Shown here in pieces: positions 2,631 through 33,413 of a stretch of 64,000 nt of DNA (its first letter is position 1; every line of letters begins with the position of its first letter). Made by a program: the position numbers and the translations under genes. Under the pieces are notes generated by a model. That model was not told the DNA's origin. It did not search any database and saw only the letters and a list, made by a program, of their open reading frames with translations. Origin of the DNA: an uncultured Gammaproteobacteria bacterium (GTDB lineage Bacteria; Patescibacteriota; Microgenomatia; 0-14-0-10-38-17); contig CAYGEH010000001.1 in assembly GCA_964348895.1 (NCBI GenBank), positions 312,002 through 376,001 of the forward strand, given 5' to 3'.

Positions 2631-3488
2631 ATGAAAATTAAAAAGTTATTCGCTGGGCGGAAGCTAGTTATTGCAACGATGCACGAAAAAGAGCGGGTTA
2701 TTGCCCCCTTGCTCGAAGAGCATCTTGGGGTAGAAATTATTGTGCCAAAGAATTTTAACTCTGATAAGTTTGGAACATTTACCAGAGAAACTAAGAGAAC
2801 AGGAAATCAGCTTGAGGCTGCCCGAGCTAAGGTTCAGGCAGCGATGATAAGCGAGAAAGTGGATTTAGGGGTTTCAAGCGAAGGAAGCTTTGATGCTCAT
2901 CCCTCTATTCCCTTTATTCAATCTGATTTAGAACTAGTCTTATTCGTTGACAAAAAAAACAAATATGAAATCAAAGGTCATCATCAAACCCAAGAAGCAA
3001 ATATGGACGGGCAATATGTTACAAGCGCAAAGGAGGCCCTCGTTTTCGCCCAAAAGATAGGCTTTCCCCAACACGGCATCATTGTCAGGAAAAGTAAAAC
3101 TGGACACTTTGGAATTCACAAAAACATCCAAAACGAAAAGGCCCTGGTTGAGACAGTAGAAAAGATGCTTTCTGGTTTATTTTCTAAAAAAGTTTTTCTT
3201 GAAACCGATATGAGAGCACACAGAAATCCTACTCGCATGAAAGCGATAGAAAAAGCAACTAAAGATTTAATTAAAAACATTCTCTCTCTTTGTCCTAAGT
3301 GTCAATCTCCTGGTTTTGTGGTTGTTGATTTTGAAAAGGGTCTTAAATGTTCTCTTTGTAATTTACCAACCAACCTACCCTTAAACAACGTTTATCAATG
3401 CAATTTATGTGGTTATGAAGAAAAAAGAATTGTTACTAAATATGGCAAAGCTGCCGATCCTAAATATTGTGGATATTGCAATCCATAA
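2631..3488 (+). CDS. hypothetical protein with C-terminal four-CxxC zinc-ribbon
   Basis: 285-aa ORF after a long AT-rich intergenic region; C-terminus CPKC...CSLC...CNLC...CGYC suggests Zn-ribbon; no family recognised. Confidence 0.55.
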   Translation: MKIKKLFAGRKLVIATMHEKERVIAPLLEEHLGVEIIVPKNFNSDKFGTFTRETKRTGNQLEAARAKVQAAMISEKVDLGVSSEGSFDAHPSIPFIQSDLELVLFVDKKNKYEIKGHHQTQEANMDGQYVTSAKEALVFAQKIGFPQHGIIVRKSKTGHFGIHKNIQNEKALVETVEKMLSGLFSKKVFLETDMRAHRNPTRMKAIEKATKDLIKNILSLCPKCQSPGFVVVDFEKGLKCSLCNLPTNLPLNNVYQCNLCGYEEKRIVTKYGKAADPKYCGYCNP

Positions 3489-3626
3489 CAAAAAGGGGGC
3501 AAAAAGCTGGTCAAAAAATAACCAACTAACCAAAGAATAATCACGAATTTTTTTTTCAAAAAAACTACCTCCTCGCTAAATTACAAAAAAAGAACTTATT
3601 TTTACTTTATAAGGCTTATTTGGAGC

Positions 3627-4760
3627 TTAGGGGTTTTGTGGTTCCTGACTTTTTGGGGCAACAATTTGCTCAAGAGCTTTCTTCACTTCAGTTGGACCAG
3701 ACAAGAGTTCTTTTTGCCAAGAAATTAAATTTTTAGCAAATGGTTCTCTTGATCGTTTAAGTAAGGCTCTTAATGAGGCAACTTGGTTTTTGGGTTTACC
3801 AGCAATATGCATTCCCACCCCTTTATCGCCAACAACATTTTTATATCTTTCTTCCTGTCCGCCAATCAATCGAAAAATAAAAAGGGGTAATCCCACTAGC
3901 CCTGCCTCTACCGACATTTGTGCCAAAGAAAAGGCTAAGCCAAAATCGGCGACCGCCATCCACTCGGCCATTTCTTCTTCTGAAAGCCAGTTCAAAAAAC
4001 GAAACATAGGGTCATCACCATAGCTCTCTTTCATTTCTTTCTGAAAACTCTGGTTTTTTCCGCATAGAAAAACAAAAACTACATTGTCGTCTTTAAAAGC
4101 AATCCTTAGGTGTTTTATGTAGGCCTTAGATCTTTTTATCAAACCACTTCCCGCCATCACTAAAATTAAAAGACAGTTTTGTTCGACACCTAGTTTTTCT
4201 CGTAAAGAAGTTTTAATGTTTCCCTGTAAGATCTTTTCCCCCATTTCATAAAAAGCTGGTCTTGCCAAGGGTAGAGTATAAATTAATTGATTCAGGTTTA
4301 CTCCAAACTTAATAGCATCTGCTGTTGCTTGTGGCCAAAGAGCAAAGTAATAATCGGGTTGAGGAGAAGTAAAATAGGTTGCATGAGCAATTGGGTCCAA
4401 AAGCAACATTACTTTAACAAAAGTACTACCCCTAGGTCTGATTAGAGCGTGTGTGGAAATAATCAAATCGGCTTCCATATAGTTGGGAATTACTTGATTT
4501 AGCTTTTTTTCAATTTCTGGAACTAAAGGCTCAATCATTGCCTGAGCCAAAAATGGCCGATTAGAAATCTTAAAAAGAAGCTTGTAAATTTTTGGAACCC
4601 TATGAATCCAGCTAGTCGCCTTCTCGCTTATGCGAGGCAAAACATCATATATTTCGGATTGATAGCCCCATTGTTCCAGCCAATACCGATAGGCTTGAGC
4701 CATCGAAAAGTGCCCCTGTCCAGTTTGACCAGTTAAAATAATTGCCCTCTTTTTTTTCAC
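3627..4760 (-). CDS. glycosyltransferase, GT28 / MGDG-synthase (UgtP/MurG-like) family
   Basis: N-terminal IILTGQTGQGHFSMAQA resembles the MGDG synthase/MurG N-terminal sugar-acceptor domain; size 377 aa consistent. Confidence 0.55.
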   Translation of the reverse strand: MKKKRAIILTGQTGQGHFSMAQAYRYWLEQWGYQSEIYDVLPRISEKATSWIHRVPKIYKLLFKISNRPFLAQAMIEPLVPEIEKKLNQVIPNYMEADLIISTHALIRPRGSTFVKVMLLLDPIAHATYFTSPQPDYYFALWPQATADAIKFGVNLNQLIYTLPLARPAFYEMGEKILQGNIKTSLREKLGVEQNCLLILVMAGSGLIKRSKAYIKHLRIAFKDDNVVFVFLCGKNQSFQKEMKESYGDDPMFRFLNWLSEEEMAEWMAVADFGLAFSLAQMSVEAGLVGLPLFIFRLIGGQEERYKNVVGDKGVGMHIAGKPKNQVASLRALLKRSREPFAKNLISWQKELLSGPTEVKKALEQIVAPKSQEPQNP

Positions 4761-4915: not shown

Positions 4916-6766
4916 CTATTCGCTATTTAACTTATTAGCTAACTCCTCCTGTTCTTTATGAAGATTTTCGTCTTGATCGATCATTCTTTCTTCAGCTTCA
5001 GTCAACCACTGGTTTGCTTCCATTCTGGCAAAAATCGCTCGGGCAATATTTATTCTAAGTAAAATTATTTCGTTTATTCTGTCAACCTCTACTTTGTTTT
5101 TTTCGTAAAAATCGCGATGGTCTTTTAATTTAAGCCAGCCAGGTTGAATTTCCTCAAGGCCAGAAAGAAGACTCCTCCATGAATCAATTGTTTCTTGTTC
5201 GTAGTTTGGCGGCACATAGCCAGCAAAATGCTGAACAATTACTTGAGTGGGGCAGCCATTAATTTCGCCCTCCACTTCTGCTAGACCAAACTCCTGCATA
5301 TCTTTGTTTAACATAAATTTCTTCCAGTCAGGGGATTCAAAAAAATGCTCAATTAATTCTTCAGCCTCATAGTAGCCCTGTGTTATTGCTTCATTCCAAG
5401 TAATGTTTGAGTATCCCACTTCATTCATTGCTTTAAGCTGGGTATAGCCACTCTCTGTGGCCTCGTAAGAGAAATCGTCATATTTTAGAATTACTTCTCC
5501 TCTTTTAAAAGCCGATTTCTCTAATTTGGGTTGATATTTCAATTCTCCAACCCCAGCCTCTCTTCTTTTTTTATTAAGTAATTCGAGGTATTTTTCAACA
5601 TCTAGTCTAATTTTTGAACCTTCTTCAAAATCTCTTGAAACATCACGCCAATTATTATCAAAATTGCCAATCTGTTTTTCCCAAGGAATAACATGACTAA
5701 TATCTTTGTAATCTATTAAGCCCAGTTTATGCCTTGAATCGCCACTCCCCTTACGATTATCTCCCATAACAAATAGTTTTCCCTCTGGAATGGTTAAACT
5801 TTGACATTCTAAAAAATATGAACTTCCAAAGGTTGAGCGGGCCCTATTAGTATAGGGTTCTTTTTGCGGTTCATTATTTAAATAAAAAATTCCGTCCCGA
5901 ATCTTAACTTTGTCGCCGGGCAGGGCCACCACTCTTTTAACAAATCCAGTCGCCTCGCCATCTTTTTCTGTAATTTCCTTTGTTTTTTCATTAAAGAAAA
6001 GGGCAATATCGCCTCTGCTAATTTCATAACTCAAAAATCGCCGACCAAGAGCCTCAAACCCCCTCGGATAGCGCATCATCCCTGGTGCCCCCACTGTTTC
6101 CCTAATTTGCTCTTCTCTTGTTTTCCCTTGGCCTTTGGGAAAGGTAGGGTACATTGAACCCGTACCAGCTAGGGGAATTGGTTCGGTCGCAAGATTCAAA
6201 TGCTCTTTAATTATCAACTCATTAACTACTAGCCCCGCAAAAACATAAATCCCAAGCCAAACAGGAAGAACCACAAAGACCACCAAGCCCAAAGCAAAAG
6301 ACTTTGCCAAAAAAAGACTTAATTTGAAGGGGCGAAACAATCCCTTTGCTCCAAAAGCTTTAATTTTCTTTATTGTTTCTTTGGGCTGAATAATTTGCCC
6401 AAAAAAATAAAAAGGCAAGAAGGCAAAAAATAAGCCGATTTTTAGGAATAAAACAACAACGTTAGTTTTTTTCTTTTTCTGAAGTTCTGTTTTGTAAACA
6501 AAATAGGCAAGAGACCCTAAGCCAAAAAAAATTATTCCTAAAAAAACAAACCCTAAAAGTATAAAAACAAAAATGTTGGGCGCTTCGCCAAGTGACTCCT
6601 GGCGTATGCCCAAAACAGCAACCATAACTCCTATCGCCCCCAAAACACACAGAAGCCAAAGCCAAAAAGCAAGTTTTGAAAATTTTGCTAACCACACTTT
6701 TCCCGCTTTTTTCTCCATTTGGTTTTTAATAAAAAAATGCCAAATAAGGTGTCGCAAAAAAAACAC
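4916..6766 (-). CDS. lepB: signal peptidase I (S26) with N-terminal polytopic membrane region and C-terminal CAP/SCP-like extension
   Basis: Catalytic boxes GSMYPTF, KRVVALPGDKV and GDNRKGSGDSR; ~200 aa hydrophobic N-terminal region (true start may be an internal Met, e.g. MEKKAGK); C-terminal ~230 aa with CAP-domain-like pattern (GYSNITWNEAI...HFFESPDWKKFML). Confidence 0.85.
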   Translation of the reverse strand: MFFLRHLIWHFFIKNQMEKKAGKVWLAKFSKLAFWLWLLCVLGAIGVMVAVLGIRQESLGEAPNIFVFILLGFVFLGIIFFGLGSLAYFVYKTELQKKKKTNVVVLFLKIGLFFAFLPFYFFGQIIQPKETIKKIKAFGAKGLFRPFKLSLFLAKSFALGLVVFVVLPVWLGIYVFAGLVVNELIIKEHLNLATEPIPLAGTGSMYPTFPKGQGKTREEQIRETVGAPGMMRYPRGFEALGRRFLSYEISRGDIALFFNEKTKEITEKDGEATGFVKRVVALPGDKVKIRDGIFYLNNEPQKEPYTNRARSTFGSSYFLECQSLTIPEGKLFVMGDNRKGSGDSRHKLGLIDYKDISHVIPWEKQIGNFDNNWRDVSRDFEEGSKIRLDVEKYLELLNKKRREAGVGELKYQPKLEKSAFKRGEVILKYDDFSYEATESGYTQLKAMNEVGYSNITWNEAITQGYYEAEELIEHFFESPDWKKFMLNKDMQEFGLAEVEGEINGCPTQVIVQHFAGYVPPNYEQETIDSWRSLLSGLEEIQPGWLKLKDHRDFYEKNKVEVDRINEIILLRINIARAIFARMEANQWLTEAEERMIDQDENLHKEQEELANKLNSE

Positions 6767-7135: not shown

Positions 7136-8074
7136 TTAACGAATCAATATTTCAGTGAAAACAAACATCGTATACAAAACCAAAAGCACTAGTCCTTCAA
7201 GCCGAGAAATGGTGTTTTTTGTTCGGGCAAAATAATAAAACACTCCTAAGCCAATGGCTAAAAATAAGAGACTGGTTATATAGTTTTTGGCTAAAAGAAC
7301 TGGCTGTCCATACCAAAAAGTCAAGAAGCCCAAAAGAAAGGTATTAAAAGCGGCTGAGCCTACATAGCCACCAAAGGCAACTTGATGTTTACGCATAAAA
7401 ATAGACCTGACAACAAGCGACAACTCAGGCACATTAGTGCCGACAGCAATAAGAATCAAACTTACAAAAAAAGGGGAAACATTTAATAGGCCAGAAAAAT
7501 AAATAGTTTGTTGAACAATAAGTCGACTGGCAACAAAAATAATCATCACTCCAAAAAGTATTTTCAAAAATTCTTTGCCAGCTCTAACGCTATTTCTTTT
7601 GTTGATATTTTGTAGCTTTTCTTTTAAGCTTCGTCTTGATTGAACAATAATAAGAAGAAAACCAAACAAGAGCATCGCAACAACACTGTCTGTTCTTCCA
7701 ATTCTGCCATCCATCGCCAAAATAACCGGTAGGCCAATTACCGCCAAAGAAGCCGGCAAGTTAAACCCTTGAAGCTCAGAACGAAGACGAACCGAGTTTC
7801 CCGCTACCGCCAAAAGTGGCATGACTAACATAAAAAGCACAATAGAAGCACCAATCAGGTTGCCGACATAAATTTCAGGATCATTTTCAAAAATAGCATT
7901 AATGCCGACAGACAGCTCGCCAACAGAAGTAAACAAGCCTAAAATTATAAACGAGACCGTAAAAGAAGAAAATTTAAGCGAGCGGGAGAGTCTTTCCACT
8001 GATTTAATCGCAAGCCCTGAGCCAACCCAAATACCAACAAACGATAATAAATAAACAACAACAGGAAAAGGCAT
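7136..8074 (-). CDS. Ca2+/Na+ antiporter, CaCA (YrbG-like) family
   Basis: Two alpha-repeat signatures GNLIGASIV and GTNVPELSL in a 10-TM-like 312-aa protein. Confidence 0.8.
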   Translation of the reverse strand: MPFPVVVYLLSFVGIWVGSGLAIKSVERLSRSLKFSSFTVSFIILGLFTSVGELSVGINAIFENDPEIYVGNLIGASIVLFMLVMPLLAVAGNSVRLRSELQGFNLPASLAVIGLPVILAMDGRIGRTDSVVAMLLFGFLLIIVQSRRSLKEKLQNINKRNSVRAGKEFLKILFGVMIIFVASRLIVQQTIYFSGLLNVSPFFVSLILIAVGTNVPELSLVVRSIFMRKHQVAFGGYVGSAAFNTFLLGFLTFWYGQPVLLAKNYITSLLFLAIGLGVFYYFARTKNTISRLEGLVLLVLYTMFVFTEILIR

Positions 8075-8299
8075 AAGTCTCTGCTCTCAGTTTAGCAAAA
8101 AAACGCTGTTAATTCACCACCACTTTAGTCCTCTCTTTATGGAAAGACTACGGCAAAAAAAATTTTACTAAAATCATAAGCGAAGAATCTTAAAACTGGG
8201 AAGTAAAAAAACACAACTTAACCAAATAAGGCCTCTTAGTTTGATTGTTAATTTGCGGGCTTCCTAATCATCAAATTACTATACAGCTAGATTTTACCG

Positions 8300-8503
8300 C
8301 TATTTATCGTGATTTTCAACTTTCCTTAAAGTTCTAACATAGAACTTGCCGAGTGAGCGAGCAGCAACAACACGCAGTGAAAACCCAGAAATCATCAAAA
8401 AGATACTAACCCAAGCCAAAAAAGAAGAACCAATGCTGGAAAAATGATAGTAATTTAGTAAAGAAGCAATCAGAATACCAAGGGTGTTAGCAAGAATAAC
8501 CAA
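8300..8503 (-). CDS. short membrane-protein ORF, possibly a truncated gene fragment
   Basis: 67-aa hydrophobic ORF in the AT-rich gap between the antiporter and the R-M island; ends abruptly; weak resemblance to N-terminus of polytopic methyltransferase-type membrane proteins only. Confidence 0.25.
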   Translation of the reverse strand: MVILANTLGILIASLLNYYHFSSIGSSFLAWVSIFLMISGFSLRVVAARSLGKFYVRTLRKVENHDK

Positions 8504-8697
8504 AGCGGGGAGGTTCGGACTCTTTTTATCATATGCTGTTTTATTAAGATCTTTGGCTGAAGAACCAGATCAGATTAACCTTTAAACCACAAAAAAGCCT
8601 GCAATTAAAAGGTAAGCACAAATCGTTGAAAAAGAAATTTGCATGTTGTTTCAAGTATACCTTTTTTCTCTGGTTCTTTGTATAATTTTGTAGAGGT

Positions 8698-8889
8698 ATG
8701 CCGAAGAAAGAAGACGAGTTACCCAAGCTGTTAACTATCAAACAGGCGTCAGAAATCCTAAATGTGCATGTAGAGACTTTGCGCAGATGGGGCAAAAGTG
8801 GGAAATTAAAGGCTGTCAGAGTTAATAAACGAGGCGACAGGCGCTATGATCCCAAAGATATTGAAGCAATACTGAAAAATAAAAAATAA
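8698..8889 (+). CDS. small HTH DNA-binding protein (MerR/excisionase-type helix-turn-helix)
   Basis: LTIKQASEILNVHVETLRRWGKSGKL is a classic excisionase/MerR-type HTH; stop TAA followed 2 nt later by res ATG (translational coupling). Confidence 0.7.
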   Translation: MPKKEDELPKLLTIKQASEILNVHVETLRRWGKSGKLKAVRVNKRGDRRYDPKDIEAILKNKK

Positions 8890-8891
8890 GT

Positions 8892-11477
8892 ATGACCAAT
8901 CTATACCAAAAATTAAAATTAGATGTCGCTAACTGGAGACAGCAAGGTTACTCCTCCTCCTATCCTGCTATTACCACCATCCTCCAGCGCAATCAAGGCA
9001 ACTTTCTAAGAAAGGCACAATTCGAGGCATTAGAGACTTACTGGTATCTCAGGCTGATTAAAAACACTCCCAACATCTTTGATCTCTATAAGGATTACTT
9101 TCCAGGGAAGACCCTCTTTGAAGCCTTTGGATTGAAACACTTGATCGAAAACCTGCCAGAAGACTTAATCACCCCAGAGCTTACCCAGGGAATCCTAAAA
9201 AAAATTGAAACAGATGATGCCTTTATAAAGCAAAATAAATTAGAAGCACTGAGGGAGACACTTACCCTTTCATATCCAAGTTACATTCTGGCATTGGCAA
9301 TGGGAGCGGGCAAAACAATCTTGATGGCTTCAATTATCGCCACCGAGTTTGCGATGGCACTGGAATATCAGGAGGAGGACGGCATCTTCATTAAAAACGC
9401 TCTGGTATTTGCGCCTGGGAAAACCATTTTAGGTGCTTTGAGGGAAATCTCCGATACTCCCTATGATAAGATACTGCCTCCTCGTTTTTATAAATCCTTT
9501 ATCACCAATGTTAAATTCACCTACACCAGAGATGGCGAGAAAGACATTCCCGTTATCCGAGGCAGCTCCTTTAATGTTGTTGTCACCAACACTGAGAAAA
9601 TAAGACTTCAAAAGAACAGCATCCCCAAATCTTTCCTATCTGGGCAGTTAAGGCTTGGGATAGAAGAAGCCAAAGAACTTGTGGCTAATTTAAGGCTACA
9701 GACCATTACTTCATTGCCTCATTTGGCAGTCTTTTCAGACGAAGCCCATCACACCTATGGACAAGAGCTGGCAAGCGATCTTAAACGGGTAAGACAGACC
9801 ATTAACTACATTGCCGAGAAAACCAACCTTCTGGCGGTGGTCAATACCACTGGCACACCATACTACCAAAGACAACTCCTGCGGGATGTCATTTACTGGT
9901 ATGGGCTATCCCAAGGCATCGAAGACGGCATTCTTAAAGAGGTTAGAGGCAACATTATGGCTTATCCTAAGGTCTCCGAGGAAGACTTTGTTATCGATAT
10001 TGTCAAAGATTTCTTCCAAGAATACAAAGATGTCCGAGTTAATAACGGCGAATATGCAAAACTGGCAATCTACTTCCCTCAGGTCGCTGACTTAGAGAAA
10101 GCTAAACCCATTGTGGAGCAAACTCTCATCTCATTAAAAATTGACCCATCAATTGTCCTGCCAGTGCATAACAAGTCAACTGACGAGATCAAAGACCTTT
10201 TTGATAATCGCATCAACGACCATAAATTGCCCTACAGGGTCTTTTTACTCGTCAACAAAGGCACTGAAGGATGGAACTGCCTATCCTTATTCGCCACCGC
10301 TCTGGCAAGGAAACTCACTTCAAGCAACAACTTTGTTTTACAAGCTGCCAGCAGGTGTCTAAGGCAAGTCAACGGCAATACCAAAAAAGCCAAGATTTAC
10401 CTCTCAAAAGACAATGTCTCCATTCTTGATCGGCAGTTGCAAGAAACCTTTGGTGAGGGGCTGGATGATCTCAACAGGGCTTCTACCGACACGGTAACAG
10501 TTAAAGTAACTCTTAGAAAAATTGAATTAGAGCCTTTACTTATCAAAAAGCTCATCCAAAAGATAGTCCCAGAAGACTTGAAAGCTGAAGAAAGTCTAAA
10601 AATCAATAAACCAGGCAAAGAAACGGTCAAATCCTTTGAAAAAACCATTTACTCCATGTCCAAAGCCCAAAGAAAAGGGGTGTTAGTTGAAGTGGGCACT
10701 AAAAAAGGAACGGTAACGGACAGGAAAATCGACCTGTTCCAAGCTGCCGTGGTTCTAGCTCATACTTACCGCTTAGACTCGCTAAAAACTTATAAATTGC
10801 TTCAAGGTTTATACCCAGACGGAGAAATTGGAGCGTTTGAACTGGAACTTATTCGTTCCCAAATAGAAAAACAAACCATGCGCTATAAAGTGGTTAACGA
10901 GACAGTCGAAGAAGCACTTGCCCTAATCAAGCAAAAGGGGTTCGAAGAAGAAATTGTTGACGGTAAAACCTCCTATGTGACCCACATCAGAGTTAACAAA
11001 ACCTCTCTGGAGAAATATGTGCTGGAGCTGAAAAATTACAAGGCAAAGGCTGGGCAGTTACCGCTCTTTGGCTTTCATTACGACCCCTACAATTTTGATT
11101 CAGAAGATGAGCGAGAGTTTTTTGAGAGAATGCTTACCAAACTCGGTGAAGACCCCGATAATGTTGAGGACATTTATTACACAGGCGCAATTAACGATCC
11201 CGCCAGAACTGACTTTATCTTTGAGTATAAAGATGACAAGGGAGACTGGCACAGTTATACCCCCGACTTTTTAATTCGCAAGAAAGACGGCAAGTCCTTA
11301 ATCGTAGAGGTAAAAGCCCCAAAATACAGGATTAAGGAAGCTGAAAAAGAGATGCAAGAGCTGGAAGCGATAAATCCTGATAAAATAAAGTATGAACTCC
11401 TGCTCTTAGAGGAAGGAGAATCAGTATTTGGTAAAGTTGCACCTGTTTTTAACTGGATTTACCAAAAACAAGAATAA
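8892..11477 (+). CDS. res: Type III restriction enzyme, Res subunit (SF2 helicase + PD-(D/E)xK nuclease)
   Basis: Walker A-like LAMGAGKT, DEAH box FSDEAHH, C-terminal YTPDF...LIVEVK nuclease motif; stop abuts mod start (TAA-AT-ATG). Confidence 0.85.
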   Translation: MTNLYQKLKLDVANWRQQGYSSSYPAITTILQRNQGNFLRKAQFEALETYWYLRLIKNTPNIFDLYKDYFPGKTLFEAFGLKHLIENLPEDLITPELTQGILKKIETDDAFIKQNKLEALRETLTLSYPSYILALAMGAGKTILMASIIATEFAMALEYQEEDGIFIKNALVFAPGKTILGALREISDTPYDKILPPRFYKSFITNVKFTYTRDGEKDIPVIRGSSFNVVVTNTEKIRLQKNSIPKSFLSGQLRLGIEEAKELVANLRLQTITSLPHLAVFSDEAHHTYGQELASDLKRVRQTINYIAEKTNLLAVVNTTGTPYYQRQLLRDVIYWYGLSQGIEDGILKEVRGNIMAYPKVSEEDFVIDIVKDFFQEYKDVRVNNGEYAKLAIYFPQVADLEKAKPIVEQTLISLKIDPSIVLPVHNKSTDEIKDLFDNRINDHKLPYRVFLLVNKGTEGWNCLSLFATALARKLTSSNNFVLQAASRCLRQVNGNTKKAKIYLSKDNVSILDRQLQETFGEGLDDLNRASTDTVTVKVTLRKIELEPLLIKKLIQKIVPEDLKAEESLKINKPGKETVKSFEKTIYSMSKAQRKGVLVEVGTKKGTVTDRKIDLFQAAVVLAHTYRLDSLKTYKLLQGLYPDGEIGAFELELIRSQIEKQTMRYKVVNETVEEALALIKQKGFEEEIVDGKTSYVTHIRVNKTSLEKYVLELKNYKAKAGQLPLFGFHYDPYNFDSEDEREFFERMLTKLGEDPDNVEDIYYTGAINDPARTDFIFEYKDDKGDWHSYTPDFLIRKKDGKSLIVEVKAPKYRIKEAEKEMQELEAINPDKIKYELLLLEEGESVFGKVAPVFNWIYQKQE

Positions 11478-11479
11478 AT

Positions 11480-13327
11480 ATGACAAACGATAAAACAAAT
11501 AAAGAATTAACCAAGTCTCTCTCTGACGAGATGAAGATTGAGGCTAAGATAAGCAAGATAAAGATTGAAACGCCAAAAGGTAGACCTCTACTCCATTGGG
11601 TCAACAAACACCCGTTAGAATATGTCACAGGCTTCCCGACACAACTAACAGAGGTTTTTGACCCCCAGAAGAAAGACAAATTCCCAGAAACTCCTAAATA
11701 CAATGAGCTTGAAAAAAACTGGCACAATCTCTTATTTCATGGTGATAATAAAGAAGTTTTAGCCACACTCCTGGAGCAGGGTTTTAGAGGCAAGGTTGAC
11801 CTTATTTACATCGATCCCCCGTTTGCCAGTAACAAAGACTACATAAGGAAAGTTGAGCTGCGAGGATTGAAAGATTTAGGAAAGATTGAAGAAGATAGCG
11901 AGTCTATCATCCAGCAGACGATGTATGAAGATATTTGGAAAAGGGACGAATACTTCCAATTCATGTATGAGCGGTTAATTTTACTGAAGGAATTGCTGGC
12001 AGAAACAGGCAATATTTATGTCCACCTTGATTTCAGGATGGTTCACTACATTAAAACGATAATGGACGAGATTTTTGGAGAAGACAATCTACAAAACGAA
12101 GTTATTTGGGCTTATAGGACGGGTGGATCAAGTAAGGGGAACTGGAGTCAGAAACACGACACAATTCTTTATTATTCTAAGTCGGACAAACCAACCTTTA
12201 ATTTACAGAAAGAAAAGGCTTACACAAAAAGTAAGTCGAGAAAGCCTGGTGTAATTGATTACGGTGGCGGAACTGCTGAATTTTTTGAAGACGAATACGG
12301 CGTTTACAATTTAGTTCACGCCAGAGATGTATGGGATATTCCTTATATCAATTCACAATCCGATGAACGCCAAGACTACGCAACTCAAAAACCAGAAGAA
12401 TTGTTGGATAAAATTATCAAGGCTTCTTCAGATAAAAATGACTTAATTCTCGACTGTTTCGTGGGTTCTGGCACAACTTGTGCTGTAGCTCAAAAGTTAG
12501 GGAGACGCTGGATTGGTGTAGATGTAAATAAGGGGGCAATTCAAGTTACCAGTAAAAGACTACAGAAGATTATCAAAGATCAAAAGGAAACCAAATACCC
12601 CACCTTCGTAATTTACAAGGTTAATAACTACGATTTGAGAATCCTGAAGACTGAGGTTAAGGAACTGGCTATCCAGCAATATGGAATTACTAAGGTCAAA
12701 ACGGACACTTTCTTTGACGGTTTGCGGGATAGTGGTGAGCTGGTTAAGATTATAGATTTCTATCATCCCTTAACACTACTTGACCTACAGCTGATCGTTG
12801 ATGAGCTTAACAAGCGCCCAGACGAGGATAGGGATGTGGTGGTCATCTCACTGGGCAGGGAGACAAAGGTTGATGCTTGGATTGAGGAATGGAATAAAAA
12901 ACAGCCTTATAAAGACACCAGAAGCAAGAAACGCATGCGCCAGTTTATTATCTTCGACCTCAAAGACAAAAACTTTGTGAGCTATGAGCCATCAAAAACG
13001 GAGATAGAAATTAAGAGGATGGGGAAAGGCAAAGTGAAGATTAAGATTACATCCTTTATCTCACCCACTATCATTAAACGCTTGGAGCTTGAACCAGGGC
13101 TCTTGCAAAAGAAAATCCCAGATTTCAGGTCGATGATCGATGTGGTGCTGATTGACACAGACTACAACGGTGAAGTATTTAAGATTGGTTTCTCGGATGT
13201 TCCCGAAAAACAGAAAGATTTAGTTAAGGGCGAATACGAACTTGAAGTAAGCGAAAAGCCAACCAAAGTGGCAGTCAAAGTCATTGACATGTTAGGAGAA
13301 GAAGTTCTGGTCACCAAAGAGGTGTAA
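11480..13327 (+). CDS. mod: Type III restriction-modification Mod subunit (beta-class N6-adenine/N4-cytosine DNA methyltransferase)
   Basis: Motif IV IDPPF (aa ~110) precedes motif I DCFVGSGTT (aa ~325) = beta-class order typical of Type III Mod. Confidence 0.85.
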   Translation: MTNDKTNKELTKSLSDEMKIEAKISKIKIETPKGRPLLHWVNKHPLEYVTGFPTQLTEVFDPQKKDKFPETPKYNELEKNWHNLLFHGDNKEVLATLLEQGFRGKVDLIYIDPPFASNKDYIRKVELRGLKDLGKIEEDSESIIQQTMYEDIWKRDEYFQFMYERLILLKELLAETGNIYVHLDFRMVHYIKTIMDEIFGEDNLQNEVIWAYRTGGSSKGNWSQKHDTILYYSKSDKPTFNLQKEKAYTKSKSRKPGVIDYGGGTAEFFEDEYGVYNLVHARDVWDIPYINSQSDERQDYATQKPEELLDKIIKASSDKNDLILDCFVGSGTTCAVAQKLGRRWIGVDVNKGAIQVTSKRLQKIIKDQKETKYPTFVIYKVNNYDLRILKTEVKELAIQQYGITKVKTDTFFDGLRDSGELVKIIDFYHPLTLLDLQLIVDELNKRPDEDRDVVVISLGRETKVDAWIEEWNKKQPYKDTRSKKRMRQFIIFDLKDKNFVSYEPSKTEIEIKRMGKGKVKIKITSFISPTIIKRLELEPGLLQKKIPDFRSMIDVVLIDTDYNGEVFKIGFSDVPEKQKDLVKGEYELEVSEKPTKVAVKVIDMLGEEVLVTKEV

Positions 13328-13357
13328 TTAGATATTCCTCTCAAAGATTACTGATTT

Positions 13358-13383
13358 AACTGCCCTTAATTGGGCAGTTTTTG
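13358..13383 (+). terminator. rho-independent terminator after mod
   Basis: AACTGCCC-ttaatt-GGGCAGTT 8-bp perfect stem followed by T-run (TTTTTG), 30 bp after the mod stop. Confidence 0.6.
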
Positions 13384-13395
13384 TAGAAAAATAGC

Positions 13396-14001
13396 ATGAT
13401 CGATATAAAAAACTTTGATCCTAAAAAAGACCTTGAAGAATTTCTGAAACCCTATGGTGAGAAGGCGCTATTAGATTTTAGAGATAAAGTCACTCAGGAC
13501 TTGAAAAGAATTTCTGAGAGGCATAAAAGCCTGCTAAAAGATTCTGAAAACTTCAGACTGCAGTTAATTACCATTGCTGGTGGAACAATTTCCATCTTTG
13601 TTGCCCTACAAGGAAACTTTGATATTTCACTGCTGACAAAACTGGGTTTTGCTGGTTTGGGCGTATCTTTGATATTGGGTGTAGCTTCGCTGTTTTTTGG
13701 TCTTGAATCAAAGCGATTTAAAATTCAATTAGAGGAAAGCAGTAATTTATTTCAGCAGAAACAGGCGCTTGATTTTCTTGAAAAGCTTTATCGTCTCGAT
13801 ATCAGCTCAGAAAAAGAGATACTTTCCTGCTCAGAGAGTTTTAAGAAAGAATATGATGCCGACCTCAAAAAAAGACAGAAACAGATAAACAAAATTCTGA
13901 ATTTTATACACCTGGACGCTCAAAAAGTTGAAAACGGACAGTTAATTTTATTTATGTTAGGGATAATCTTTATCGTTTCGGGATTGTTCCTGCGTGTCTA
14001 A
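13396..14001 (+). CDS. hypothetical membrane protein (2 central TM helices + C-terminal TM, coiled-coil flanks); first gene of 3-gene cassette
   Basis: Hydrophobic segments LITIAGGTISIFVAL, GFAGLGVSLILGVASLFFGL, LILFMLGIIFIVSGLFL; 201 aa; no homology recognised. Confidence 0.55.
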   Translation: MIDIKNFDPKKDLEEFLKPYGEKALLDFRDKVTQDLKRISERHKSLLKDSENFRLQLITIAGGTISIFVALQGNFDISLLTKLGFAGLGVSLILGVASLFFGLESKRFKIQLEESSNLFQQKQALDFLEKLYRLDISSEKEILSCSESFKKEYDADLKKRQKQINKILNFIHLDAQKVENGQLILFMLGIIFIVSGLFLRV

Positions 14002-14032
14002 TTAAACAATTAAAGCAGCCTGGTAAATAACT

Positions 14033-14746
14033 ATGAAAAACATAAATGATCTTCTAACTGAACTGGCTAAGGGTGCAACTCACATCATCAGCAAGCCAGA
14101 AACAATAAAGGAGCTTCAGAAGCAAGGGGTAAAGTTTGATGAACCCCAAAGATTGACTCCTGAACAAGCTGTCAAAAGCATATTTTCCCAAAGAAAAGCA
14201 GTTGCCTTAACCAACATAGCCAAATTCACTTCTCCGCCAGATATTGCTATCCCTACAATTGGTTTTCTTTATGATGAAATTCGGGAGTGTATTCTATTCG
14301 GACTTTATGGAGCTGCAATTTCTTTAAGTGCCGTTTTGGTGGAATTTTCACTCAAACACGCCATTATCAAGAAAAAGTGTGGAGACGCCTATGATAAAAA
14401 CGAATGGGATCGAATCGAAAATGTAGAACTTAACCCAACCATTAAAGAAGCCAAACAATTAGGCGTTATTGATAGAGAAACAGAAAAAAGGCTGATCAGC
14501 TTCAAAAACACTATCAGGAATCCCTATTTACATTACAACATAAAGAAAATCACAAAAAATGTGGCTATAAGAAAGGTGAAGCGGTTCGATATTAAAACGA
14601 GAGAAGTGAAAGAAGTCGACCTAGATGCGAAGGATAATCCTGTTGTTTGGGGATTTGCGAAAAGATTTGTTGATAGGGAGATGGTTTTTCAAGTCTTTGG
14701 ATTTGCAGACAATTTAGTAAAATATCTTTTTTCAAATAGCACATAA
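14033..14746 (+). CDS. hypothetical protein with RNxxxH (HEPN-like) motif
   Basis: RNPYLH at residues 162-167 (nt 14516-14533) matches the Rx4-6H HEPN RNase signature; 237 aa; 3-bp gap to next gene. Confidence 0.5.
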   Translation: MKNINDLLTELAKGATHIISKPETIKELQKQGVKFDEPQRLTPEQAVKSIFSQRKAVALTNIAKFTSPPDIAIPTIGFLYDEIRECILFGLYGAAISLSAVLVEFSLKHAIIKKKCGDAYDKNEWDRIENVELNPTIKEAKQLGVIDRETEKRLISFKNTIRNPYLHYNIKKITKNVAIRKVKRFDIKTREVKEVDLDAKDNPVVWGFAKRFVDREMVFQVFGFADNLVKYLFSNST

Positions 14747-14749
14747 GTT

Positions 14750-16390
14750 ATGAGCAAAAATAAGAAAATCGGCAAGAAAACAAACACGCCCTTCATAAGA
14801 TTCAGACACGGAACGAGGTTAGAGATAGACCCTAATGTTAGAGAATCGATAAAGGAATTTTTGGAGAATTATAAGCAGCAAGGTGAACAAACATTTCGTA
14901 GTCTCATCAAAGATATTGCTGATGGTTCTGGCTGGGGCATACACCCAGATTCTACCTGGCACAGAGCGATTCAAGAATTGTTTGAGAGATATCGAGACTG
15001 GGAATCACCATCAAGAGATAATGCTATCGCTGCTGTAATTGAAATACTGGAGATTTTGGCTAGAGGCACTGAACCTCAGACAACTTGGGATGAAGTCGTT
15101 AAAAAGCTAGAAAACAAGTTAGAAGTCCTAAGTGGTTGGGAATACTCTCACATTAAAAAGTTTGGTGAGCAGGATGGGATTAAAAGGGACGCAGATGACT
15201 ACTACATGGAAAAAGGCGGTCAGAGAGTCGATGTGATAGGCACAAAAACTTTGGAAGAAAATAAGTTTGATTACATTCAGGACGACATCAACAGAGATTA
15301 CGGTAATATCGGGTCTTTACTCAAATTGGCGGAGATGCTTTTTATATCTTTGGACTTTGTAGCCAATCCACAGCACTATCGTAAGGAACTTTCTTACGCC
15401 ATGAGCGAAGCGGATAGTAATACTTGGTTTCTACATGGAAGATGGCGAGTAGAAACATCATACGAGTTAATTCCCATTAGCTGGCATCCACGCAGCTGTT
15501 ATACCGATATTGATTGGTTAAAAAGCGAGGCGATAACCATTCTTGCTAGAAAATGCAGAGTTGAGCAAGAAGCGATCCCAAGAATACTCTCAACTGAGGA
15601 TAGTCTTTCAAGGTGGCAGGAGGCATTTCAAGGGTATGCCCTTCAATATGAGACAGCTTATGAAACAGACATAATTCTAGGAAGTGAGCCGTTTGGATCT
15701 TCTCCAGAGGAGCTTTACATTGATTTTGAAGGAAGGAAACTGAGGTGGATTAACGGCACAAAGTATGTTTACCCATCCCTGATAATTCCAGCAAAAGACG
15801 ATACCTACGAAGAAGAACGAGAAATTGCTCGACGGTTTGTCAGTGCGCTAGTGTTTTCGGAAAAGTATCCCATTAGAGAGATTACGAACGCTGCGTGTCC
15901 GAAAAGATTTGCTCCGCTTATTCGCCAGCCACGATCAAATATCTTTCTTGGTATTTCAACAGATATTCTTGCTTTACTTGGTCAACTGAGGACAGAGAGA
16001 CAGTGGCAAGCACTTTCGTATTACAAGGAAGCGGTAAACTCGGAAAGCATTTATTACCAGTTTTTATGTTATTACAACACAGTCAAATTGGCATTTCTCA
16101 ATGCAAACAATGAGGAAGATACGAATCGAGTCGACCAGTGGATAAATAGCCAAGCACCAAACTTAAATATAACTCCATTACTTACAAGGCTAACTAGCCA
16201 GGGAACGACACTAGCAGCTTATTTGAGACACGAAGGAGGGAGGAATGCTATTGCACATGTTGGGATGCTAAGGGGTAATCACCCAACCATTGTTCCAGAT
16301 AATCCAGATGATCGTCGCAGGATTCAAGAAGTGTTGCCGATTGTTAGAGAATTGGCAACGAAAGTAATAGGAGACGGAATGGTCAGTTAA
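14750..16390 (+). CDS. hypothetical protein with C-terminal RNxxxH (HEPN-like) motif
   Basis: RNAIAH at residues 498-503 (nt 16241-16258) preceded by a helical Y-rich segment (YYKEAVNSESIYYQFLCYYNTVKLAF); 546 aa; no other family recognised. Confidence 0.5.
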   Translation: MSKNKKIGKKTNTPFIRFRHGTRLEIDPNVRESIKEFLENYKQQGEQTFRSLIKDIADGSGWGIHPDSTWHRAIQELFERYRDWESPSRDNAIAAVIEILEILARGTEPQTTWDEVVKKLENKLEVLSGWEYSHIKKFGEQDGIKRDADDYYMEKGGQRVDVIGTKTLEENKFDYIQDDINRDYGNIGSLLKLAEMLFISLDFVANPQHYRKELSYAMSEADSNTWFLHGRWRVETSYELIPISWHPRSCYTDIDWLKSEAITILARKCRVEQEAIPRILSTEDSLSRWQEAFQGYALQYETAYETDIILGSEPFGSSPEELYIDFEGRKLRWINGTKYVYPSLIIPAKDDTYEEEREIARRFVSALVFSEKYPIREITNAACPKRFAPLIRQPRSNIFLGISTDILALLGQLRTERQWQALSYYKEAVNSESIYYQFLCYYNTVKLAFLNANNEEDTNRVDQWINSQAPNLNITPLLTRLTSQGTTLAAYLRHEGGRNAIAHVGMLRGNHPTIVPDNPDDRRRIQEVLPIVRELATKVIGDGMVS

Positions 16391-16549
16391 GTGTTAACCT
16401 TGTGTGCCCCTGTGTTGACTTGTGTGGGGCTTTCGTGCCTGGGGTGGATAAGTTACCTTAATTTAGCTTCAGAAGCCTCGTTGGGGATTTGTTGCAGGAT
16501 CTGTAGTGGCTCCGGGAGGACTCCTTAACCTCCATACTTATTTGGGCTA

Positions 16550-16891
16550 GCCTGGAGAATTACTAAGGATAAGTATGAGGAAAAAACGAAAGAGTATCGG
16601 GTAAAACAGAAGGAAATTAGCGGTAAGATTGCCAAACTAAATTATGCTGACGAGGAATACTATTTAACCTCGGAATACCTACTAAAACTGGCTTCTAATG
16701 CAGGAAAATTGTTTGAGAGTTCTGGAGTTCACGAAAAACGGCTACTTTTAAAGATGACACTTCAGAACTTGGAGTTAAATGACAAAATAACCCGATTTAA
16801 ATGGATAAAACCGTTTGACAAAATAGCTTTTTACACCTCTCGTCAGCCTTGGCTCCTCGGGGAGGATTTGAACCTCCGACCAACCGCTTAA
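16550..16891 (+). pseudogene. C-terminal remnant of a large serine recombinase, reading into tRNA-Asn
   Basis: Open frame ...YRVKQKEISGKIAKLNYADEEYYLTSEYLLKLASNAGKLFESSGVHEKRLLLKMTLQNLELNDKITRFKWIKPFDKI... has the same architecture as the C-terminal coiled-coil/tail of the intact recombinase at 28024-29520; no N-terminal catalytic domain upstream (stop at 16547-16549). Confidence 0.45.
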
Positions 16892-16925
16892 CAGGCGGGC
16901 GCTCTACCAACTGAGCTACCGAGGA
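16851..16925 (-). tRNA. tRNA-Asn (anticodon GTT)
   Basis: Cloverleaf TCCTCGG-TA-GCTC..GAGC-..-anticodon loop CTGTTAA-..-GGTTCAAATCC T-arm-CCGAGGA-G-CCA encoded on minus strand. Confidence 0.9.
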
Positions 16926-16995
16926 ATATTTTTTAATATCAATAAACGACTAAATTATAACATGTAGCAGACAGGAAAGGCCTTAGCTAAACCGC

Positions 16996-18165
16996 TTAAT
17001 CTAGATAGTCTTGAAGTTTTTTCCGCCTTGAGGGGTGTTTTAGTTTTCTTAAAGCTTTTGATTCAATTTGCCTGATTCGCTCTCTGGTAACACCAAAGTG
17101 TTTTCCCACCTCTTCCAGGGTTCGGGGTCGATCGCCATCTAGGGCAAACCTTAACCTTAAAACCTTAGCTTCTCGATCGCTTAAGCTCGATAAAACTTCA
17201 TCAACATTTTCTTTCAACAACTCTCTGGCTGCCTCTTCGTAGGGAGAAAGACGGGAGTCGTCTTCAATGAAATCACCTAAAACCGAATCTCCCTCCTCAC
17301 CCACTGGCGCCTGTAAAGATGCGGTATCTTGAGAAATCTTAAAAACAGTTTTTACCTTAGAAACAGGCAGTCCTAATTCTTCGGCAATCTCTTCTGCTAC
17401 TGGTTCTCGGCTTAATTTCTGAGTCAATCGACGACTGGTTCGATAAACTTTATTAATTGTTTCCACCATATGCACTGGGATTCTAATTGTTCGAGCCTGA
17501 TCAGCAATCGCCCGAGTAATAGCCTGGCGAATCCACCAAGTGGCATAAGTCGAAAACTTAAAGCCTCGCCGCCAATCATATTTTTCAGTTGCCCGAATTA
17601 AACCCTTATTGCCCTCTTGAATTAGATCTAAAAAGGATAGCCCTCGGCGAAGATACTTTTTGGCAATTGAGACTACTAGACGAAGATTGGCCTCCGTTAA
17701 TTTTTTCTTAGCCTCAATCGACCCCGCTTCAACTTTTTTTGCTAACTCAATTTCTTCACTCGCCTTTAAAAGGCTAATTCTGCCAATTTCTTTTAGGTAA
17801 TTTCTAACCGGATCAGTAATTTCTCCAGTCTGGGCGACTATTTTTTCAATCTGGGCGGCAAATTTAGCAAAGTCTTCTTGATTGGATTCTTCTAGGTCAA
17901 GCGACTCGAAAACATCCACACCCCTTTTGATTGCCCAATAATAAAACTCATCTAACTCCTTAACTCTTTCCTCAGCATCGGGAAAAACAATCAAAACTTC
18001 CGCTTGAGTTAAAAAGCCCTCGTCTTCACCTTTTTTAAGCAACTGTTTTGCTTCAAGGGAAAGAAAGGTTTTTTTCTTAGACGAATCTTTGTGGTCAACC
18101 TGACTTTTAGTTGAGGCTACTTTAGGCGAAGAAGCGGTTTTTTTAGAAAGACTTTTTTTGGCCAT
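16996..18165 (-). CDS. rpoD: RNA polymerase sigma-70 factor RpoD
   Basis: Regions 2-4 conserved: [54 protein letters not shown]; [26 protein letters not shown]. Confidence 0.95.
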
Positions 18166-27988: not shown

Positions 27989-28077
27989 GGAGGAGTCGCT
28001 TAGAGGCCCATAGCACAGGTTTGCTAAACCTGCGAGCCGTATGGCTCACGTGGGTTCGAATCCCACCTCCTCCGCCA
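27989..28077 (+). tRNA. tRNA-Ser (anticodon GCT), type II
   Basis: GGAGGAG acceptor, anticodon loop TTGCTAA, long variable arm; 3' 45 nt identical to tRNA-Ser(CGA); 3' half overlapped by the recombinase ORF end. Confidence 0.85.
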
Positions 28078-29520: not shown

Positions 29521-29577
29521 AATTCTAAAAGATTAAAATTCAGAAAAGCCCGTTTCTGGCGTTTTGCTTCGCAAAAC

Positions 29578-29664
29578 AAAGACAAAAAATTCAATTTTGC
29601 GTCTAAAATCGGCTGGCGAGCCCTCGTAGAGGGCGAGCCAAACCCTTCTTTTTCTAACTGGCGG
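29578..29664. repeat. IR-A right copy (inverted), 47 bp upstream of recombinase start
   Basis: Reverse complement of 28072-28158 (1 mismatch); preceded by perfect hairpin GTTTTGCTTCGCAAAAC at 29561-29577. Confidence 0.8.
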
Positions 29665-29770
29665 TGTGTATTTGAAAAAATCCGAACTGATTTTGCGACC
29701 GATTGGCTCGGCGGGCGGAATTCCCCCCGAACCCCCTTTCCGCCCGCCTCGCCTTGAAGCGGAAGCGAAA
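29661..29770. repeat. IR-B left copy (110 bp) containing GC-rich hairpin GGCGGGCGGAA...TTCCGCCCGCC
   Basis: Reverse complement matches 30975-31084 with 1 mismatch; overlaps end of IR-A by 4 nt. Confidence 0.8.
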
Positions 29771-29792
29771 AGGCAAACCGCCAAAGAACCTG

Positions 29793-29820
29793 AAAAAATG
29801 TCGGCTCGAACTTTATTTTG
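29793..29820. repeat. IR-C right copy (inverted)
   Basis: Perfect reverse complement of 28159-28186. Confidence 0.75.
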
Positions 29821-30136: not shown

Positions 30137-30145
30137 AATAAACTT

Positions 30146-33411: not shown

Positions 33412-33413
33412 TT

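Follow-up and report, generated by a model that had tools for sequence, protein, structure and literature searches.

What is the short open reading frame (ORF) that runs into the tRNA-Asn(GUU) gene beside an accessory island in a genome of the Patescibacteriota, and how did it come to be so short? The DNA analysed here is a 64,000-nt stretch of contig CAYGEH010000001.1 (hereafter the window, on which all positions given without a locus label are numbered). To the left of the tRNA gene it carries a restriction-modification (R-M) operon and a cassette of three further genes, followed by a fragment that a sequence-only reading of the same DNA had taken for the C-terminal remnant of a large serine recombinase (LSR). 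Comparison with related loci indicates that window positions 16559-16855 are indeed the 3' stub of an LSR gene, the sole surviving piece of that recombinase. For the locus as a whole, we consider it likely that the stub, next to a block of accessory genes, is the remnant of an integrative element whose recombinase gene was truncated at a specific site, with a nick by the element's own replication initiator as the most likely agent.

Related loci were collected by a scan of one genome per species, which gave 79 loci with similarity to the stub (labelled L001 and so on), most of them metagenome-assembled. Throughout, we refer to the last ~99 codons of an LSR gene as the C-part, to the upstream rest of the gene as the N-part, and to the two ends of the C-part in the window as J1 (the truncation junction) and J2 (the tRNA-end junction). 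The C-part of the window aligns with residues ~391-490 of the ~500-amino-acid (aa) LSRs of these loci (495-534 aa) at 55-82% identity, and the slightly longer stretch 16559-16888 aligns with residues 392-501 of full-length LSRs at 70-76% identity. The reference LSRs of this family carry Resolvase, Recombinase and Zn_ribbon_recom domains, and frame extension showed that open frames of 495-569 codons end in the stub sequence in 28 of the 79 loci. The homology to serine recombinases on which the sequence-only reading depended is present by way of these full-length relatives, and the fragment reads into tRNA-Asn as that reading had described, the catalytic part of the gene being deleted. The LSR origin is visible only through relatives: the peptide encoded by 16529-16888 contains no Pfam domain and gives no BLASTP match to the window's own LSR (28024-29520), so that the window by itself did not suffice to confirm its identity. 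The frame is open on the plus strand from 16529 to a stop at 16889-16891, extends 42 nt into the 3' part of the tRNA-Asn gene and has its first canonical start at residue 61 of its 120 codons (TTG at 16709). The resolvase catalytic domain, recombinase domain and zinc ribbon of a functional LSR are absent from it. No N-part of the tRNA-Asn LSR family was found anywhere in the 64-kb window, in which the sole other recombinase signal (28138-29520) is 27-29% identical to that family.

Fragments of this kind are common. A protein search with the stub returned 138 relatives, all of them 71-210 aa long and unannotated (49-83% identical among the 120 listed), the longest of which start within the zinc-ribbon motif (YRYYHCTQYKGKHG) and continue through the coiled-coil region. 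A search of 1.84 billion representatives yielded 1020 stub relatives, with 14 of the best 150 being at least 440 aa long, and viral contigs contributed just one distant locus. The short, strongly conserved homologues had raised the idea of a structured RNA rather than a gene remnant; this was ruled out, as no Rfam family was found in 16391-16850 and the folding of the spacer to the left of J1 was no better than that of shuffled sequences (z = +1.06).

The complete relatives point to the kind of element from which the stub derives. Its parent belongs to a widespread family of small (~6-8 kb), circular, plasmid-like elements that integrate into chromosomes of Patescibacteria and of members of some other phyla. 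This family is apparently undescribed: no description of it was found in the literature searched, whose coverage was incomplete, and searches of the literature on MauJ/HEPN and on LSRs and tRNAs in the candidate phyla radiation returned nothing relevant. The elements are organised as geneB (no known domain), a SpoVG-like gene, a gene for a 390-aa protein (p390), a helix-turn-helix (HTH) gene of the HTH_17 family, a variable cargo slot and the LSR gene. The same backbone lies upstream of nearly every complete LSR gene and is conserved in about 20 loci, while the slot holds, among other cargo, Type II and Type III-like R-M systems and Erm-like methylases. The best NCBIfam matches of the parent LSR are XisF and CcrA/B, below cut-offs. 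One metagenome contig, L087 (6001 nt), has a 30-nt exact terminal overlap and a geneB ORF that is continuous over the joint, and is therefore a complete circle of 5971 bp; it carries an intact LSR gene of 525 codons.

Comparison of the attachment sites of the circular form (attP) and of the left and right ends of integrated copies (attL and attR) identified the 3' end of tRNA-Asn, that is, its CCA/acceptor end, as the attachment point of the family. In L087, attP lies at the 3' end of the intact LSR gene. Its LSR-proximal arm continues into tRNA-Asn in attR, and its distal arm, which encodes the native LSR tail (PLKDLFCNHKLEF...), marks the opposite end of the element, next to unrelated host DNA, as attL in six relatives (L013, L015, L020, L005, L045 and L011). 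The core common to all three sites, GCTCCCCC, is the acceptor/CCA end of the tRNA. By this comparison, the LSR crossover that integrates the elements takes place in the terminal ~8-10 nt of tRNA-Asn(GUU); it regenerates the tRNA without duplicating it and leaves the LSR gene running antisense into it. Many complete LSR genes overlap the 3' end of tRNA-Asn, with subclades using tRNA-Gln, Asp or Arg instead, and in several loci that seemingly had no tRNA, the tRNA-Asn gene is interrupted by a group I intron. In the window, J2 has the form of an attR-type junction left by an LSR crossover, and the read-through tail beyond it stands in place of the native ~35-aa LSR tail of the circular form. The same antisense arrangement, as the sequence-only reading had pointed out, is found at the intact LSR gene at 28024-29520 on the minus strand, which overlaps tRNA-Ser(gct) (27989-28077) by 54 nt.

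Several observations were made on individual members of this family. Group I introns (RF00028, 64-99 bits) lie directly after the 3' half of tRNA-Asn(GUU) in several Patescibacteria, where the tRNAs were not called by ARAGORN; the exon break can be read as the anticodon loop. In L081, a complete element from geneB to LSR with Type II R-M cargo occupies positions 10951-18061 of a 462-kb Woesebacteria contig. Its LSR gene ends at the 3' end of a CaCA gene and bears a long non-tRNA tail (WLEKWIQFRTTDW...), which suggests a second target or a different integration state. In L014, a middle fragment of the same LSR family (residues 246-327), followed by IS3-family transposase genes, lies at 3041-4480, 6.6 kb upstream of the stub. 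A LOOT RNA (RF03000, 80.8 bits) was detected near the element in the Patescibacteria metagenome-assembled genome (MAG) that contains L001, at 6513-6624.

The left end of the stub is where the locus departs from an ordinary remnant. In 28 copies (26 loci and the window), unrelated left-hand DNA is joined to ATTACT... at the same nucleotide, with the consensus GGNGR/ATTACT: among 30 fragment-type copies, two of which are divergent full-length genes, G is found at positions -5, -4 and -2 in 24, 27 and 29, respectively. Uninterrupted LSR genes read GGTAGT/ATTACT at this point (T at -4 in 24/40 and T at -1 in 36/40), so the GGNGR bases cannot simply have been inherited. Where the left partners of J1 can be recognised, they are differing points of the element, namely geneB codons 24, 31, 84, 137 and 237, LSR codon 46 (L012) and HTH codon 25 (L014). 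About 14 further truncated copies break elsewhere. Repeat-induced mis-joins alone do not explain the novel junction sequences. Because the same nucleotide is broken in 28 independent copies with unrelated left flanks, we infer that the J1 truncation arose by a site-specific, one-ended deletion and not by the random decay of the recombinase gene that the sequence-only reading had envisaged. The copy in the window can no longer move by itself, since it has lost 390 catalytic codons, the genes of the backbone and its left attachment site.

J1 also leaves a trace in genes that are not truncated. Here, uninterrupted LSR genes have a mosaic structure: where residues are identical, their codons agree at 0.47 to the left of J1 and at 0.66 to the right (composition-corrected, and seen in every amino-acid class), and DNA identity steps at codon 389 from 0.62-0.70 to 0.82-0.93. 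Between L005 and L013, for instance, LSR identity rises from 54% in the N-part to 80% in the C-part, with p390 at 85%; no comparable block of synonymous conservation was found in the p390 gene. Furthermore, a 12-mer, GGTAGTATTACT, is identical among LSR genes whose products share only ~45-55% of residues and occurs once per element, and a conserved block lies 20-40 bp downstream of J1. In L030, two 97%-identical direct copies of the stub (301 bp), both starting exactly at J1, flank 4.6 kb of element. Around J1 itself there is just a 3-5-bp mini-palindrome, (G)TAGT-ATT-ACTA, with folding energies no better than those of shuffled sequences.

The genes to the left of the stub, all of them on the plus strand from 8698 to 16390, conform to the HTH-res-mod operon and three-gene cassette given by the sequence-only reading, both as ORFs and in their domains. 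Within the operon, Res begins 3 nt past the HTH stop and Mod begins 3 nt past the Res stop. Mod matches Type III methylases best, and Res appears to combine a ResIII helicase motor with a putative PD-(D/E)xK-type nuclease region, its C-terminus matching Pfam Tn7_TnsA-like_N at 1.7e-5. The system resembles Type III R-M in these respects and in its 3-nt gaps. The usual order of a Type III operon is mod followed by res, whereas here an HTH gene comes first and res precedes mod, which is not the textbook layout. Moreover, Res matches REase_III weakly and the NCBIfam BPTD_3080-family restriction endonuclease well below cut-off (1e-14, 53.6 bits against a cut-off of 800); the REase_III and TnsA-like matches are below or near their cut-offs. 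In the cassette, the 201-aa p201 had no family matches. The 237-aa p237 likewise had no family matches, and its single-sequence AlphaFold2 model (pLDDT 49.5) was too poor for a fold search. The 546-aa p546 matches the MauJ model of Pfam, not a HEPN-named one; it had no PADLOC, PHROG, NCBIfam or PDB match and no homologue in the 79 related loci. The hallmark Rx4-6H motif of HEPN proteins is present in both p237 and p546.

Several lines of evidence bear on the history of these genes. A comparison of composition, which the sequence-only reading had proposed, showed that no other 7.7-kb stretch of the window departs as far in tetranucleotide profile as 8698-16390 (distance 0.2016; mean 0.138, sd 0.023, hence ~2.8 sd above the mean); the contrast in GC content is small (0.402 vs 0.384). 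The nearest relative, L014 (a Microgenomates MAG), matches window 8677-8773 at 90% (L014 9915-10011, blastn) and then directly 16550-16925 at 84%. It lacks window 8774-16549, so that codon 25 of the HTH gene is joined directly to the stub. Cargo differs among all related loci and gene order is not conserved, and the universally shared gene order that would have spoken against a polymorphic island was not encountered. Res and Mod are 80% and 71% identical to those of two Woesebacteria loci, L045 and L081, where RpoD is 66% and p616, encoded left of the island in the window, 44% identical. The atypical composition, the patchy distribution, the absence from L014 and the close Res relatives elsewhere mark genes 8698-16390 as accessory, mobile DNA. 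The HTH protein is of the HTH_17/MerR type, as had been proposed. It is, however, the first gene product of a mobile R-M operon and not the element's own excisionase-like protein, since it belongs to a separate HTH_17 lineage from that of the element backbone, which is missing here together with the replication genes. As cargo of the element that left the stub, the R-M operon and the Rx4H genes are putative. In a side observation, the HTH-Res-Mod operon of L045 (12431-19526) and L081 (657-8073) contains an extra gene for a 220-aa HEPN-domain protein between HTH and Res (PF05168 in L045, E 2e-4, just under cut-off), and is adjoined by a gene for an OLD/AAA_15-type ATPase-nuclease, forming a small defence cluster downstream of an S26-peptidase gene.

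The left limit of the island is less clear than the right, where the stub is followed by rpoD-dnaG. The sequence-only reading placed the border at ~8100, with an insertion scar in the AT-rich gap, and suggested that the gap might hold a partial copy of the tRNA-Asn 3' end. We looked for an attL by four routes: copies of the tRNA 3' end, the P' arms of seven relatives, all native tail types at the protein level, and local alignment of 65 J2-downstream sequences against three candidate borders. No tRNA-Asn 3'-end copy, P' arm of any tail type or attL was found anywhere left of the island, all four routes remaining at the shuffled background, and a search of 8075-8697 for remains of the backbone genes was negative, as were those of 8075-8676 for an att sequence and for similarity to the related loci. 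The second attachment site or direct repeat expected of a tRNA-integrated island, seen as attL in the six relatives above, is thus missing from the window. Neither the border nor the scar is borne out, and similarity to L014 begins at 8677. Of the ~8.7-kb integrated element that had been suggested, the accessory genes and the largely deleted integrase stand, but its left border is without support. The short ORF in the gap is plausibly a truncated membrane protein, and its stretch GFSLRVVAARSLGKFY may resemble the N-terminal part of ICMT/PEMT-type membrane methyltransferases.

Further left, the antiporter gene is the conserved transporter that had been described, its named matches including Woesebacteria and Roizmanbacteria, and synteny comparison showed that its neighbourhood is rearranged between genomes. 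The p616 gene, which encodes an S26 signal peptidase with a CAP domain, has the look of a housekeeping neighbour. Homologues of it lie inside the integrated element, between attL and geneB, in L013 (3090-4895) and L011 (179-1942), and because of this the foreign DNA of the window may start left of 4916, as far as such a comparison can tell.

Features of the window and of related loci referred to in the text (positions are those of the window unless a locus is named)
Feature	Positions	Strand	Evidence or remark
p616, S26 signal peptidase + CAP-domain protein	4916..6766	-	Pfam; related loci
CaCA (Na/Ca exchanger family) antiporter, conserved housekeeping-type neighbour	7136..8074	-	Pfam 3.6e-33; 594 relatives, best 61-75% identical
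AT-rich gap, GC 0.35	8075..8676	.	no informative homology
67-aa ORF in gap	8300..8503	-	sub-threshold Pfam Acyl_transf_3, E 0.005
Left limit of DNA shared with L014; TATAAT box and ribosome-binding site upstream of HTH	8677..8697	+	blastn
HTH_17/MerR-type small DNA-binding protein	8698..8889	+	Pfam HTH_17 5e-13; TIGR01764 excisionase-family domain; PADLOC mad1
Res, 861 aa, ResIII helicase-type restriction subunit	8892..11477	+	Pfam ResIII 1e-6; PADLOC REase_III 5.5e-5
Mod, N6/N4 DNA methyltransferase	11480..13327	+	Pfam N6_N4_Mtase 1.2e-50; PADLOC MTase_III 1e-71 (best = Type III methylases)
p201, predicted membrane protein, three hydrophobic segments	13396..14001	+	hydropathy
p237, RNPYLH (Rx4H) at residue 162	14033..14746	+	motif search
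p546, C-terminal MauJ domain containing RNAIAH (Rx4H, residue 498)	14750..16390	+	Pfam PF17419, E 1.7e-16
Non-coding spacer, 'X side', p546 stop to J1	16391..16558	+	unrelated to LSR genes
J1 truncation junction GGAGA/ATTACT	16554..16564	+	break between 16558 and 16559
C-part (ITKDKYEEK...SRQPWL), last ~99 codons of LSR gene	16559..16855	+	tblastn
J2 core TGGCTC, reverse complement of tRNA discriminator + CCA	16850..16855	+	end of C-part homology; 3'-end alignment across loci, L087 attP, attL of relatives
Read-through tail LGEDLNLRPTA + stop	16856..16891	+	antisense to tRNA T-arm
tRNA-Asn(GUU/gtt)	16850..16925	-	ARAGORN; Rfam 70.8 bits; intact, no intron
L087 circle: geneB, 55-aa ORF, SpoVG-like, p390, HTH_17, 126-aa ORF, LSR, 231-aa ORF (-)	Logan contig SRR26786831_39531, 1-6001		
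Group I intron loci	L034 10341-10558; L026 10358-10574; L028 10349-10583; L001 9034-9283; L046 10235-10533; L055 284-478; L022 1701-1911		Rfam

What could break a gene at one nucleotide, again and again? The agent that we rank highest, while giving it somewhat less than an even chance, is the element's own rolling-circle initiator, by analogy with plasmids: in those of the pT181/pC194 type, the nick site is known to give rise to one-ended deletions and to hybrid replicons. The initiator would nick an origin site inside the LSR gene (...GGTAGT/ATTACT...), with the putative p390 cleavage falling between AGT and ATT within GACGGTAGTATTACTGAGAGC, and the 5' end thus freed would be linked to pseudo-sites whose last bases are GGNGR. 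The outcome would be deletion derivatives and origin-switch mosaics, and the conserved block to the right of J1, together with the extra synonymous conservation of the stub, would represent origin DNA. An origin within a coding region would have a parallel in pT181 plasmids, whose double-strand origin is so placed (PMC5703833), and the recognition site of a rolling-circle initiator has been located ~23 bp downstream (PMC4797284).

With moderate support, p390 is a probable initiator of this type. Over 2,100 relatives of it occur in public data, all unannotated, and sequence searches of Pfam, PHROGs, NCBIfam and PDB gave no match. When an AlphaFold model built from a 30-sequence alignment (pLDDT 73, pTM 0.75) was used in a fold search, the Rep_trans crescent fold ranked as the best structural match, and the family has an invariant tyrosine, Y191, in the motif F-Y-D-K. 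The circular extrachromosomal form to be expected of a Rep_trans replicon is provided by L087. On a more speculative and rather tentative extension of this model, GGTAGT/ATTACT would be the rolling-circle origin nick site of undescribed integrative mini-plasmids, at which aberrant strand transfer repeatedly deletes the LSR catalytic part and rep and so fixes cargo islands; the conserved 300-bp stub (origin plus attP arm) would stay behind at tRNA-Asn, and later arrivals would recombine with it to give mosaic LSR genes and stub-flanked insertions such as that in L030.

A number of points weigh against this reading. There is no stable, conserved hairpin around J1, unlike at pT181-type origins, which present the nick in a strong stem-loop (PMC4797284, PMC5775427). 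Nicking at J1 is putative, and the fold match of p390 is moderate. L063 keeps the motif with no p390 detected in 4.5 kb upstream, and the window, L014 and L012 need an assumed second deletion to account for the missing backbone. The copy numbers and the independence of the copies are estimates, since most loci are metagenome-assembled. Against a cargo role of the R-M genes, finally, the 80%-identical Res-Mod operon of L045/L081 sits outside the LSR element, and no attL bounds the island in the window. Three other sources of the junction pattern were considered and rejected. J1 and J2 do not represent the inverted-repeat ends of a miniature transposon, as the likeness of ATTnnnGAGAG to CTCTCnnnAAT is confined to one clade and fails in that of the window. 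HUH-type nick sites (the circovirus nonamer TAGTATT/AC and the IS608 target TTAC/) do not fit either, since the junction falls 3-5 nt further left than they would place it and ATTACT is never lost. GGNGR cannot derive from a Shine-Dalgarno sequence, its spacing to any start codon being wrong.

How do other explanations of the truncation compare with a nick by the initiator? Ordinary pseudogene decay, in which random deletions and point mutations would render the position of the fragment meaningless, could draw on the copies that break at residues 126-350 (L027, L029, L031, L035, L054 and L061) or inside the C-part (L046, L060, L064 and L074) and on the frameshifts or stops in L053 and L018. 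It is very improbable nonetheless, given that 28 of ~40 truncated copies break within 1-5 nt of a 1500-nt gene, next to unrelated left flanks that share GGNGR, and that uninterrupted genes switch phylogenetic affinity at the same point. A single ancestral junction with later turnover of the left flanks is contradicted by the flanks themselves, in which one and the same set of element genes is cut off at differing places. Alternatively, a recombinase, whether the LSR itself or a co-resident serine or tyrosine recombinase, may have joined a cryptic site in the LSR gene with pseudo-sites, so that cargo and catalytic segment were deleted or exchanged. LSRs use pseudo-sites, such genomes hold several LSRs, J1 forms a small palindrome (TAGTA-T-TACTA), and the exchangeable module of cargo and N-part behaves as a cassette. 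We nevertheless regard this as unlikely: the LSR's own crossover lies at J2, at the tRNA end, in attP, attL and attR alike, and the flanks of J1 are unlike P or P' arms. In addition, the 2-bp crossover of serine recombinases requires the same central dinucleotide in both partners, whereas positions -1 and -4 differ systematically between truncated and intact copies and the left parents in L012 and L014 share no dinucleotide with J1 in register. The recurrent, precise fragments on the tRNA side also fit the pattern of SSV1-type integration in archaea, which yields just such fragments next to a tRNA; here attP would lie inside the LSR gene and the stub would be one half of an intact provirus. 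This split-integrase explanation has a negligible probability and is refuted by the position of attP at the 3' end of the intact gene in circular L087, by the att comparison, in which integrated copies with complete genes abut the tRNA, and by the absence of an N-terminal half from the 64-kb window, where rpoD-dnaG follows the stub on the right.

Two further explanations concern what became of the stub and its neighbours and bear less on how the break was made. The stub may have been kept for use, which would be compatible with any mechanism, as an attR-like site closed to renewed integration, as an arm offering homology or docking to incoming elements, or as the source of a coiled-coil peptide that disturbs the recombinases of newcomers. 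In most stubs a frame of ~110 codons has stayed open, with identities of 40-80%, their synonymous sites are unusually conserved, and the element of L030 between its two stubs is the product expected of a circle entering through a stub. Use of this kind is rather improbable in our view, as there is no conserved start codon or ribosome-binding site, the N-terminal extensions of the called ORFs are mutually unrelated, and the conservation could equally stem from recent descent from intact genes or from sites acting at the DNA level. A stronger contender, with a probability not far short of even, is that the R-M operon and cassette were never cargo of the tRNA-Asn element: they would be an older or independent insertion in the same hotspot, to the right of which the LSR element landed before a J1-anchored deletion removed all of it up to their 3' flank. 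In L045/L081 the closely related HTH-(HEPN)-Res-Mod operon is not part of the LSR element and follows directly downstream of an S26-peptidase gene, and the HTH gene of the window is of the operon lineage rather than the backbone lineage. Likewise, a terminator-like hairpin (a GC hairpin followed by T's at ~16405-16436) and 160 nt of non-coding DNA separate p546 from J1, whereas cargo abuts the LSR start in intact elements. Against an independent insertion, the cargo slot of related elements (L007, L023 and L081) is occupied by R-M genes of like orientation, every left partner of J1 that could be reconstructed at other loci is internal to the element, and in L014 the HTH gene lies upstream of, and co-oriented with, the same stub.

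Seen beside known systems, the window island itself belongs to a familiar class, the tRNA-linked accessory island with a dead integrase. With tRNA-linked defence islands whose integrase is degraded it shares a fixed block of defence-type genes that includes R-M, the fragment of a dead integrase, an unusual composition and polymorphism for presence or absence; unlike them, it has no flanking direct repeats, and the end point of its integrase fragment recurs across phyla. The parent LSR shares its Resolvase, Recombinase and Zn-ribbon domains and its coiled-coil C-terminus with the recombinases of LSR elements and prophages (phiC31/Bxb1-type, SCCmec Ccr, TnpX/TndX, XisF), and the family resembles these in its precise crossover, very short shared core, regenerated target gene and nearby small HTH_17 gene. 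It differs in that it targets the extreme 3' end of a tRNA, its LSR gene spans the P arm, and it has a probable rolling-circle-type initiator and a second, internal hotspot, J1, which is not an att site. To the pT181 (Rep_trans) plasmids the elements are linked by the best structural match of p390, the invariant tyrosine in F-Y-D-K and a small circular form, and they are set apart by the missing Pfam Rep_trans match, the lack of a strong ICRII-like hairpin at J1, a putative origin in the recombinase gene and not in rep, and integration into the chromosome. By analogy, the parent element most resembles integrative plasmids that pair tRNA integration with rolling-circle replication. In actinomycete integrative and conjugative elements (AICEs) of the pSAM2 type and in ICEBs1, site-specific integration at a tRNA is combined with rolling-circle replication of the excised circle. 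The likeness extends to a small excisionase-type HTH gene and accessory cargo. The AICEs and ICEBs1, however, use tyrosine integrases, duplicate a stretch of the tRNA, are larger and are conjugative, whereas the parent element uses an LSR, crosses over at the CCA end and has a hotspot inside its recombinase gene. We know of no description of recurrent internal truncation of the integrase in these elements.

Elsewhere in the window, the upstream side of the LSR gene at tRNA-Ser (28000-35700) is the second most atypical tetranucleotide stretch, and since it adjoins that gene, the tRNA-Ser region is probably another, possibly live, island. A tmRNA gene (43456-43852; Rfam 130.5 bits) was not reported by ARAGORN.

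Taken as a footprint, the stub points to an abundant family of elements among Patescibacteria in which a serine integrase is paired with a probable initiator of the rolling-circle type and whose cargo includes R-M genes. Its recurrent breakpoint offers a testable hypothesis for how mobile elements become fixed islands, and accounts for hundreds of short 'hypothetical proteins' beside tRNA-Asn in metagenome annotations. Patescibacteria have small genomes and, to our knowledge, few genetic tools exist for them; the attP/attB pair at the CCA end of tRNA-Asn, together with the small circular backbone, are candidates for such tools. If the nick-site reading is true, these bacteria, in whose genomes such stubs are numerous, would have a built-in, sequence-specific route by which defence genes are locked in.

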